From assembly GCF_003334815.1 (NCBI RefSeq), contig NZ_QOWO01000001.1: 64,000 bases of DNA. The stretch is one strand, 5' to 3'. Source of the stretch: Escherichia coli. Its GTDB lineage: Bacteria > Pseudomonadota > Gammaproteobacteria > Enterobacterales > Enterobacteriaceae. Shown in pieces: positions 6,248-10,042 of this stretch; position 1 is the stretch's first letter, and every line of letters begins with the position of its first letter. A program made the position numbers and the translations under genes. The notes under the pieces are model-generated. The model had not been told where the DNA came from and did not search any database. It saw nothing but the letters and a program-made list of their open reading frames with translations.

Positions 6248-7366
6248 TTATTCTCCCCGTGAGTCAGCGTTATCTTTCTTTTGCTGACGACCCAGTTCAC
6301 GCACCGCCATCACGCTGACACCGGCAACCAACCCAACCACACCGCCGAGCAAACCAATAGCGCCTGCAGAGACGTTGCCGCCCTCTTTAGCGTTAACATC
6401 CGGTTTCTGTGAACGCGGAGTTTGATTTTCGACGTTGGCAAGCTGATGGATGCCTTTATGGAAGCCGATACCTTCTTCGTTACAGCCATAGCACGGGTGA
6501 CCAATCGCCACCGGCCACACACCGCCAACATCGCAGAATTGCAGCGTTGAGCAGTTGCCGTAAGTTTCTGGCCCTTTACAGCCGAGGTGGTACAGGCACC
6601 AGCCTTCGCGGTGGCCTTCATCACCGAACTCTTTGGCAAAACGACCAGCATCGAAGTGCGGGCGACGTTCGCAGTGTTCGTGAATCAGACGGCCATAGGC
6701 GAAGGTCGGACGGTTTTTGTCATCCAGTTTCGGCGGTTTGCCGTAAGTGATGATGTGCGCAACGGTCGCGAGGAAGTTGTGCGGGTTCGGCGGGCAGCCC
6801 GGAATATTGATAACGGTTTTGCCTGGCAGAACTTCTTGCAGGCTGACTGCGCCAGTTGGGTTAACTCCAGCTGCGGCAACACCGCCCCACGCAGAGCAGG
6901 AACCGATAGCGATAATGGCTGCTGCGCCTTCCGCCGCTTTGCGGATGTGATCCACAATCGGCTCACCGGCAACCATGCAATAAATACCGTTATCTTTTAA
7001 TGGGATGGAACCATCCACCACTAACACATACTGCCCTTTGTACTTCTCGAGAGCGTTATGTTTGTTCTCTTCGACCTGATGACCGAAGGCGGCGGAAAGC
7101 ACTTCGTGATACTCCAGAGAGATAGTCTCCAGTACGAGGTTTTCTACCGTTGGATGCGTTGCACGAAGCAGAGATTCCGTACAACCGGTGCACTCCTGCG
7201 CGCCAATCCAGATAACTGGCGGACGCTGCGGGTTAGTAACCGATTCGGCCATCTCTGCAGCGGCTTTGCTACTTAACCCCATGGTGGCGGCTAATGCTGC
7301 ACAAAGCTTCATGAAATCACGACGGTTAATGCCGTGAGAATGGATGAGGGTGTTATCTCCAGTCAT
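6248..7366 (-). CDS. hybO: [NiFe] hydrogenase 2 small subunit HybO
   Basis: 372 aa; Tat signal RRDFMK; small-subunit Fe-S cysteine clusters. Confidence 0.95.
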
Positions 7367-7554: not shown

Positions 7555-7842
7555 TCAATTTTCGAGGCGATAACCGGCCATAAAAAAGCGCAACGTAGAA
7601 CAGGAATTATTCTCACGAAAGAAATCCATTACCATCTCTTTATCCAGTCCATAGCGGCGCGTCAGAATACCCGCTTCCCAGGCGCTAAGCTGGCGATCTC
7701 CGGTCTTTTCGTACATCCGGTGTGAGTAGCCTAATACAAAACCGCGTTTATAATCGGCACAGAATTTTGTCACATTAACCGCACTGTCGGCATGCGTTGC
7801 TTTTAATCCCGCCATTAAGCCTTTACCAAAATGGTTATTCAT
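7555..7842 (-). CDS. yghW: Uncharacterised protein YghW (DUF2623)
   Basis: 95 aa [16 protein letters not shown]..., matches E. coli YghW. Confidence 0.8.
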
Positions 7843-7960
7843 CGTTCACCTCATTCGCTATATATTGTCATATATAGCGATATTTTAGGCAAAGAACGAC
7901 TTTTGCGCACGCTATTTTTTCATGCTTGTTTAAGACGTAATCCCGTAAGAGATAAACCTA

Positions 7961-8845
7961 TCAGGAGAGATATTTATCGAACCATTTCAGTGTCCTTTGC
8001 CAGGCAAGATCGGCGGCAGATTTGTCATAACGGGGCGTGGAATCATTATGGAATCCGTGATTAACCCCCGGATAGATATACGCCTCATAAACCTTATTAT
8101 TGGCTTTCAACGCCGCCTCGTAAGCAGGCCAGCCCTCGTTGATTCGGGTGTCCAGTTCCGCGAAGTGGAGTAGTAAAGGCGCTTCAATCTTCGCCACATC
8201 GGCAGTGGGTGCCTGACGACCATAAAACGGCACCGCGCAGGCCAGTTCCGGATACGCGACAGCCGCCGCGTTCGATACGCCACCGCCATAGCAAAATCCG
8301 GTAATACCCACTTTGCCTGTCGCTTGCGGATAGCGTTGCATAAACTCAATTGCGGCAAAGAAATCATTCATCAGTTTGTTGGATCAACCTGCTGTTGCAG
8401 CTCACGACCTTTATCATCATTTCCCGGATAACCTCCAACGGAACTTAAGCCGTCAGGTGCCAGGGCGATATACCCCGCCTTCGCCACTCGCCGTGCCACA
8501 TCTTCGATATACGGATTCAGTCCACGATTCTCATGCACCACCACTACGGCTGGCGTTTTGCCGCTCATCTTTGCGGGCTTCACCAGATAACCCCGCACCT
8601 CGCCGTGACCATTTGGCGAAGGATACGTGATGTACTCAGCAACAATTTCCGGGTCGGTAAACTCTACCTGAGTCGCCAGCGCATAATTTGGCTTGAGCAA
8701 ATCAAACAACGCTAATGCCGTCATCCCGCCTACCGCACTTCGCCGCAAGGTTGAGGAACTCACGTTTCGAGATTTTCCCGTGAGCGTAATAGTCATAGTA
8801 ATCCAGCAACTCTTGTGGGAAATCTTTGGCGGTTAAACGCGGCAT
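7961..8845 (-). pseudogene. yghX: Dienelactone hydrolase family gene disrupted by two frameshifts
   Basis: Three overlapping minus-strand ORFs (8702..8890, 8371..8796, 7961..8371) in different frames together cover one dienelactone-hydrolase-like protein. Confidence 0.75.
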
Positions 8846-9001
8846 CGTTGCACTCCTCAGTTGGTGTTTTTTTAAGCAAAGCATAAGCACGTGTTTTTGC
8901 CCAGTTTTTCGTCACTCTGTGAGCCAGACTACGGGATACGCGCTGGCGAATCGCTAAACTAGAAACATTGTTTCGAAATTGAACGGTGGAAAGGAGAGGT
9001 C

Positions 9002-10042
9002 ATGGTCTGGTTAGCGAATCCCGAACGTTACGGGCAGATGCAATACCGCTATTGCGGAAAAAGTGGTTTACGCCTGCCCGCGTTATCGCTCGGTTTATGG
9101 CACAATTTCGGTCACGTTAACGCGCTGGAATCACAGCGTGCGATCCTGCGTAAAGCGTTTGATTTGGGCATTACGCACTTTGATTTAGCCAACAATTACG
9201 GGCCGCCTCCAGGAAGCGCAGAAGAGAACTTTGGTCGCCTGCTGCGGGAGGATTTTGCCGCTTATCGCGATGAACTGATTATCTCTACCAAGGCTGGCTA
9301 CGATATGTGGCCCGGCCCTTACGGCTCTGGCGGTTCACGTAAATACCTGCTCGCCAGCCTCGACCAAAGCCTGAAGCGTATGGGGCTTGAGTATGTCGAT
9401 ATCTTTTACTCTCATCGCGTCGATGAAAATACGCCGATGGAAGAAACCGCCTCTGCGCTGGCTCATGCGGTACAAAGCGGTAAGGCGCTGTATGTCGGGA
9501 TCTCCTCTTACTCGCCAGAGCGGACGCAAAAAATGGTCGAGTTGCTGCGCGAGTGGAAAATTCCGCTGTTAATTCATCAACCTTCGTACAATTTACTGAA
9601 CCGCTGGGTGGATAAAAGCGGCCTGCTGGATACCCTGCAAAATAACGGCGTGGGCTGTATTGCCTTTACTCCTCTGGCTCAGGGATTGCTGACCGGAAAA
9701 TATCTCAACGGCATTCCGCAAGATTCACGGATGCATCGTGAAGGGAATAAAGTTCGTGGTCTGACACCGAAAATGCTTACCGAAGCCAACCTCAACAGCC
9801 TGCGCTTATTGAATGAAATGGCACAGCAGCGTGGACAATCAATGGCGCAAATGGCGTTAAGCTGGTTGCTGAAAGATGATCGCGTGACGTCGGTATTGAT
9901 TGGTGCCAGCCGCGCGGAGCAACTAGAGGAGAACGTGCAGGCGCTGAATAATCTGACATTTAGCACCAAGGAGCTGGCGCAGATTGATCAGCATATCGCC
10001 GATGGCGAGCTGAATCTGTGGCAGGCGTCTTCCGATAAATGA
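9002..10042 (+). CDS. gpr: L-glyceraldehyde 3-phosphate reductase (aldo-keto reductase)
   Basis: 346 aa, MVWLANPERYGQMQYRYCGKSGLRLPALSLGLW..., aldo-keto reductase fold. Confidence 0.93.
   Translation: MVWLANPERYGQMQYRYCGKSGLRLPALSLGLWHNFGHVNALESQRAILRKAFDLGITHFDLANNYGPPPGSAEENFGRLLREDFAAYRDELIISTKAGYDMWPGPYGSGGSRKYLLASLDQSLKRMGLEYVDIFYSHRVDENTPMEETASALAHAVQSGKALYVGISSYSPERTQKMVELLREWKIPLLIHQPSYNLLNRWVDKSGLLDTLQNNGVGCIAFTPLAQGLLTGKYLNGIPQDSRMHREGNKVRGLTPKMLTEANLNSLRLLNEMAQQRGQSMAQMALSWLLKDDRVTSVLIGASRAEQLEENVQALNNLTFSTKELAQIDQHIADGELNLWQASSDK

Follow-up and report, generated by a model that had tools for sequence, protein, structure and literature searches.

The yghX locus of K-12-type Escherichia coli as a lineage-specific hydrolase pseudogene whose N-terminal stub is YqhI

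Introduction

In Escherichia coli, the interval flanked by gpr on one side and by yghW and hybO on the other raises the question of what a gene still encodes when its reading frame has been broken twice. The yghX locus lies at this position, and in a number of strains three overlapping open reading frames on the minus strand together span one dienelactone-hydrolase-like protein. We examined this locus in a window of 64,000 nucleotides (the whole stretch of DNA analysed, from contig NZ_QOWO01000001.1), and considered whether the interval is a true pseudogene, an intact gene obscured by sequencing errors, or a gene whose product is still obtained by recoding or by reassembly of separate pieces. 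The data presented here indicate that the interval is almost certainly a lineage-specific yghX pseudogene of K-12, E. coli C and related strains, in which two genuine deletions would have left YqhI as the only product made, with the hydrolase presumably lost.

That yghX is a pseudogene in K-12-type E. coli is correct but already known. It is annotated as such in every K-12 record, and the K-12 pseudogene, which bears the UniProt-style name 'Putative hydrolase fragment YghX', shares both lesions with the window as well as its neighbours gpr, yghW and hybO. Many papers on metabolic engineering regard yghX as a pseudogene and take its place on the chromosome as a neutral site for integration, and transcriptome tables list it as a 'putative hydrolase fragment'. 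On the basis of a GXCXG motif, the gene was once proposed as a candidate cPHB polymerase. What the present analysis adds is modest: the placement of both lesions to the base, the frequency of the broken allele, evidence at the level of the motif for a Tat leader, and the recognition that the small protein YqhI corresponds to the stump of the pseudogene.

Results

The coordinates of the locus, its neighbours and the other features identified in the window are collected in Table 1.

Table 1. Position of the yghX fragments, lesions, signals and other annotated features in the window
Feature	Position	Strand	Remarks
yghX pseudogene, whole	7961..8845	-	885 nt, 888 nt in intact alleles; same interval annotated by PGAP as 'YghX family hydrolase, frameshifted'
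Fragment 1 (yqhI ORF)	8702..8845	-	47 aa; native ATG at 8845; YghX residues 1-36 plus 11-residue frameshift tail, then stop
Middle ORF ('ORF_f141')	8371..8796	-	141 aa; +1 frame relative to native ATG; profile positions 34-155
C-terminal ORF	7961..8371	-	136 aa; YghX residues 160-295; native frame regained
Lesion 1	8737..8738	-	2-bp TA deletion junction, codon 37; alignment to intact alleles and coordinate mapping
Lesion 2	8378	-	1-bp deletion, CC to C, codon 157; alignment to intact alleles and coordinate mapping
Shine-Dalgarno GAGGAG	8853..8858	-	7 nt upstream of native ATG; anti-SD duplex -8.7 kcal/mol
Tat-like motif SKREFL	8753..8770	-	codons 26-31; KR variant of twin-arginine
Triad codon, Cys186	8291-8293	-	predicted; within C-terminal fragment
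Triad codon, Asp233	8150-8152	-	predicted; within C-terminal fragment
Triad codon, His264	8057-8059	-	predicted; within C-terminal fragment
hybO	6248-7366	-	
yghW	7555-7842	-	
gpr/yghZ	9002-10042	+	
Sib antitoxin RNAs (sibD/sibE)	54520-54669, 54895-55044	-	Rfam
FMN riboswitch	45675-45823	-	Rfam; ~100 nt upstream of minus-strand ORF 44918-45571 (probably ribB)
ES173 sRNA	17626-17689	+	Rfam
REP/naRNA4 elements (n=3)	729-805, 11775-11845, 62964-63034		Rfam

Family, fold and predicted triad of the repaired protein

When the three missing nucleotides were put back, the interval encoded a protein of 295 amino acids that scored 587.3 bits against the NCBIfam profile NF041440 (YghX family hydrolase; curated cutoff, 460 bits) and covered profile positions 1-292 of 292. 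The same protein matched the Pfam dienelactone hydrolase model PF01738 over residues 84-294 (E = 3.3e-48; model positions 1-217 of 217) and the YqhI-like model PF23678 over residues 1-36 (E = 8e-20). These results confirmed the original prediction that two frameshifts have disrupted a yghX gene for a dienelactone-hydrolase-like protein. Taken separately, the three fragments yielded 55, 234 and 262 bits at profile positions 1-35, 34-155 and 158-292, respectively. Since the window lacks 3 nt in comparison with intact E. coli YghX, no fragment reaches the family cutoff, and the locus is a member of the YghX family by descent that does not encode a member protein. The ordered matches to NF041440 are those of three minus-strand ORFs derived from a single protein, as had been proposed; the proposal that the three lie in different frames needed correction, since the net change of -3 places the first and the third ORF in one frame (8845-8371 = 474, divisible by 3), so that only two frames are involved.

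Alignment with the Pseudomonas dienelactone hydrolase ClcD (1din and 4u2c; carboxymethylenebutenolidase, EC 3.1.1.45) predicted a catalytic triad formed by Cys186 (in GFCYGG), Asp233 (in ELD) and His264 (in NHGF), aligned with the nucleophile, Asp and His of ClcD (C123, D171 and H202). Both proteins belong to the family with the alpha/beta-hydrolase DLH fold, but their relationship is distant (E ~1e-15), and ClcD is a cytoplasmic enzyme devoid of a leader, in contrast to the 58-residue Tat-like leader of YghX. A much closer structure is PDB entry 4zv9, described as 'Uncharacterized protein', which is 99% identical to the repaired YghX over residues 59-294. Orthologs with the full 295-residue architecture and 85-92% identity were found in Citrobacter, Pseudescherichia, Enterobacter, Kosakonia and Leclercia.

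Placement of the two lesions

Alignment of the window with K-12, an allele carrying one lesion and two intact alleles revealed exactly two length differences with regard to the intact alleles (WP_001297303.1 and WP_001539710.1, used as references for lesion placement), and both indels could be placed to the base. The first one converts AAG TAT GCG of the intact alleles into AAG TGC G; it lies inside the range (8720-8790) in which a first frame break had been anticipated, at the first residue of the hydrophobic region of the signal peptide, and is accompanied in the alignment by a synonymous substitution (GTG to GTA) located 8 nt downstream. The second one converts CCAACCAAAC of the intact alleles into CCAACAAAC, 7 nt upstream of the position near 8371 given for the second break, and the middle frame then stops at the TGA at 8373-8371. 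The suggestion that the indels occur at homopolymers proved wrong: no run of more than two bases is present at either site, lesion 1 removing TA from AAG-TA-TGC and lesion 2 shortening a CC pair. Only the 359 nt between the lesions are out of frame, and frame 0 of this segment contains 9 internal stops. In the middle ORF, the segment from ~8737 to 8374 codes for YghX residues ~38-157, the first ~19 codons being an out-of-frame overlap. After restoration of the 3 nt, the protein differed by one amino acid (T177A) and the gene by 9 nt from the intact allele of 2014C-3097, and one residue out of 295 differed from the intact E. coli YghX WP_001297303.1, indicating that the pseudogene is otherwise not decayed.

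PGAP annotates the identical sequence as a pseudogene ('yghX, frameshifted') in K-12 MG1655 and in strain P21_SE1_04.20, and an intact 888-nt yghX is present in other strains. Over the 1051-nt yghX region, K-12 MG1655 and the window differ at a single nucleotide located upstream of the gene. This difference corresponds to position 8893 of the window, ~48 nt upstream of the yghX ATG in the gpr-yghX spacer, with C in the window and T in K-12. A simple sigma-70 scan of this spacer identified no consensus-like promoter upstream of yghX. The window itself is not K-12: its first 25 kb show 100% identity to the natural isolates G1/2, VG48B2 and KE58 and differ only slightly from E. coli C, ML35 and WG5. 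In this respect, the window is closer to natural isolates and E. coli C-like strains than to K-12.

The leader of YghX and its twin-arginine-like motif

The original prediction had recommended a search for a Tat-type signal, which gave a positive result at the level of the motif. In Tat signal peptides, an S/T-R-R-x-F-L-K motif precedes an h-region of mild hydrophobicity and a cleavage site of the A-x-A type. YghX has a predicted leader of 58 residues that ends at a putative cleavage site between ALA and TQ; its h-region is mildly hydrophobic (Kyte-Doolittle maximum, 1.85), a basic residue (K52) is present in the c-region, and the crystallised 4zv9 construct begins at residue 59, directly after ALA. 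Scans of the repaired protein with NCBIfam and Pfam gave no match to a TAT signal HMM; the scanned libraries presumably included the TAT signal models TIGR01409 and PF10518.

The leader was also compared with its relatives through a HMMER search with residues 1-63 against 1.84 billion representatives, which recovered 1050 relatives at E<=1e-3. Among the best 150 of these 1050 relatives, which are diverged, the position aligned to K27-R28 was RR in 100 and KR in 50 sequences, R28 was invariant, F30 was present in 149 and L31 in 128, and A56-x-A58 was conserved. The family consensus S/T-R-R-x-F-L-D corresponds to the canonical twin-arginine motif, and SKREFL of the window is the KR form of it. 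From this pattern we infer that YghX is probably a periplasmic hydrolase exported by the Tat system, with an enterobacterial branch that uses the KR variant.

Upstream of the motif, the best 150 of the 1050 homologs (P0166-P0315) share a conserved 24-residue n-region (DFPQELLxLYDxYxHG, invariant at H22), at a level of conservation far above what is usual for a signal peptide; residues 1-61 of YghX correspond to positions 8663-8845 of the window after repair. Across the Enterobacteriaceae, conservation over the first 31 residues matches that of the enzyme domain; in the 150 diverged homologs, H22, R28 and F30 are invariant or nearly so.

Translation signals of the fragments

The strong ribosome binding site of the locus is found at the native ATG only. 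The ATGs at 8796 and 8371, which open the middle and the C-terminal ORFs, are preceded by weak Shine-Dalgarno sequences (-3.1 and -3.2 kcal/mol). The product expected from the native ATG, fragment 1, is an exact 47-aa match to YqhI as given in PMC6001520 and to the UniRef entry YQHI_ECOLI.

These signals bear on the possibility that yghX persists as a split gene, with separately expressed fragments that reassemble into an active hydrolase. In such an arrangement, the TGATG at 8373-8369, where the stop codon of the middle frame overlaps the ATG of the C-terminal ORF as in translational coupling, would connect ORF_f141 with this last ORF. The ATG at 8796 also happens to yield an N-terminus in which RR precedes the native h-region, and the original annotation of K-12 contained separate ORFs. 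However, pairing of ~-3 kcal/mol at both internal ATGs is weak, the TGATG is simply the CTG ATG of the ancestral gene seen in a shifted frame, and the break falls inside the alpha/beta-hydrolase core. Furthermore, the same allele has gained further disruptions, such as the IS1 insertion in STK78-E described below, as expected of neutral DNA, and the locus is routinely deleted or replaced by strain engineers. A split functional gene is therefore improbable, to the point that we give it very little weight; through the TGATG, the C-terminal piece of the pseudogene may at most show trace expression.

Distribution of the lesions among E. coli genomes

Megablast located the yghX region in each of the 5426 complete E. 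coli genomes, and in every case the annotation was yghX, 'YghX family hydrolase'. To count the alleles, we used 80-nt queries centred on each lesion and scored exact matches: the junction of lesion 1 was present in 1247 and that of lesion 2 in 1197 of the 5426 genomes, corresponding to a frequency of the broken allele of ~22-23%. Carriers include K-12 derivatives, E. coli C, and isolates of human, chicken, sheep and environmental origin. Each of the three fragment proteins is represented in public databases on at least 1000 contigs, under labels such as 'ORF_f141 [E. coli K-12 MG1655]' and 'Protein YqhI YQHI_ECOLI'. The lesions represent a derived state and were seen neither in the other E. 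coli alleles nor in any of the other Enterobacteriaceae examined.

These counts decide between the two options left open by the original prediction: the reading as a genuine pseudogene stood, in agreement with the PGAP annotation, and that as a sequencing error did not. Single-base indels are common in long-read assemblies, and lesion 2 is a change of CC to C, so that an isolate with an intact gene and two base-calling or assembly artefacts might have been envisaged. Against it, both junctions recur base for base in genomes obtained by many laboratories and on many platforms, lesion 1 is a 2-bp deletion outside any homopolymer that travels with a synonymous substitution, and several independent assemblies show 100% identity to the window over 25 kb. 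Sequencing error was rejected on the basis of the junction-specific counts, and we regard it as scarcely credible.

The least plausible alternative, programmed frameshifts at both sites that would yield full-length YghX despite the deletions, was rejected as well and can be given practically no credence: two compensating shifts with a net change of -3 would indeed restore a near-native protein, but inspection of 8737/8738 and 8378 revealed no X XXY YYZ slippery heptamer, prfB-like site or stimulatory element, frame 0 reaches a stop 11 codons past lesion 1, and lesions that are lineage-specific, derived and present in ~22% of E. coli are the opposite of a conserved recoding signal.

With regard to the origin of the pseudogene, alleles carrying only lesion 1 were found in complete genomes (L004 and ETEC1730, the latter with the exact junction 1 and a region length of 1052 nt), and the product of an allele carrying only lesion 2 was seen once (P0122), on one short ENA contig. 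Either single-lesion allele could have arisen by recombination between the two sites, 359 nt apart, and either lesion may have come first.

Other disruptions of yghX were also observed. In STK78-E (L007, NZ_CP162185.1, positions 1279-1976), IS1 is inserted into an already frameshifted yghX; in NCTC9041 (H40), a large deletion leaves 15% of the yghX region; and Shigella boydii and an MP1-like allele carry different yghX frameshifts (P0125 and P0141). These independent disruptions indicate that yghX has been lost repeatedly in E. coli and Shigella.

Other elements in the window

Rfam and tRNA scans of the window identified known elements only, with none inside the yghX interval; the Rfam matches elsewhere in the window (Table 1) were at gathering level and all correspond to known E. 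coli features. In the yghX-yghW spacer, a perfect palindrome with 11-bp arms (TCGCTATATAT-TGTC-ATATATAGCGA) occupies positions 7855-7880, which places it 13-38 nt ahead of the ATG of yghW. The RpoD promoter of yghW, reported as TTGCCT-17-GACAAT (PMC3946193), has its -10 hexamer (GACAAT) overlapped by this palindrome, whose position is operator-like.

Discussion

The observations on this locus are best accounted for by a simple course of events, against which no direct evidence was encountered. The ancestral gene would have encoded a 295-aa precursor, with a Tat-type leader of 58 residues followed by a domain of dienelactone-hydrolase fold bearing Cys186, Asp233 and His264. This leader would comprise, in order, the long conserved n-region, SKREFL, the mildly hydrophobic h-region, and the site between ALA and TQ at which it would be cleaved. 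Loss of 2 nt at codon 37 and of 1 nt at codon 157 would have set ~120 codons out of frame, and translation from the native ATG would consequently end after 47 codons, with YqhI as the sole product, a leader stub that lacks both the h-region and the enzyme domain. The middle and C-terminal ORFs appear to lack any credible start signal of their own, so that they would remain essentially silent, and neither of them alone is likely to form the alpha/beta-hydrolase core; on these two grounds, the hydrolase function has presumably been lost.

This interpretation places YqhI in a different context. The protein appears among new small proteins in the table of small-protein genes of VanOrsdel et al. 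2018 (PMC6001520), and a second study reported its validation by genomic epitope tagging and described it as induced by low Mg2+ and probably soluble (PMC11429745). The passages on YqhI in both papers present it as a small protein in its own right, and yghX is not named there as the parent gene. From the match of the two sequences, YqhI is the translated N-terminal stump of the yghX pseudogene. A delta-yqhI mutant shows a growth defect in low Mg2+, and YqhI provided in trans fails to complement it (PMC11429745). Given this lack of complementation in trans, the locus may carry something beyond the stub peptide.

The conservation of the first 31 residues, similar to that of the enzyme domain, raises the question of whether the stub, which retains the n-region and the KR motif but not the h-region, is inert. 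It might still bind the recogniser of the leader, for instance the TatBC receptor or a chaperone dedicated to this task, and serve as a decoy induced by low Mg2+ in K-12-type strains; we consider such a role unlikely, although less so than the alternatives to the pseudogene discussed above. In the same line, the 'YqhI-like' module might be a domain that functions in targeting or proofreading, and not a plain signal peptide.

As for the biology of the species, only ~22-23% of the complete genomes carry the broken allele, so most E. coli would make an intact YghX, which is probably periplasmic, and K-12 would constitute a natural null for this protein. The recognition of YqhI as the stump of a pseudogene should temper the functional reading of YqhI and of the phenotypes associated with delta-yqhI mutants.
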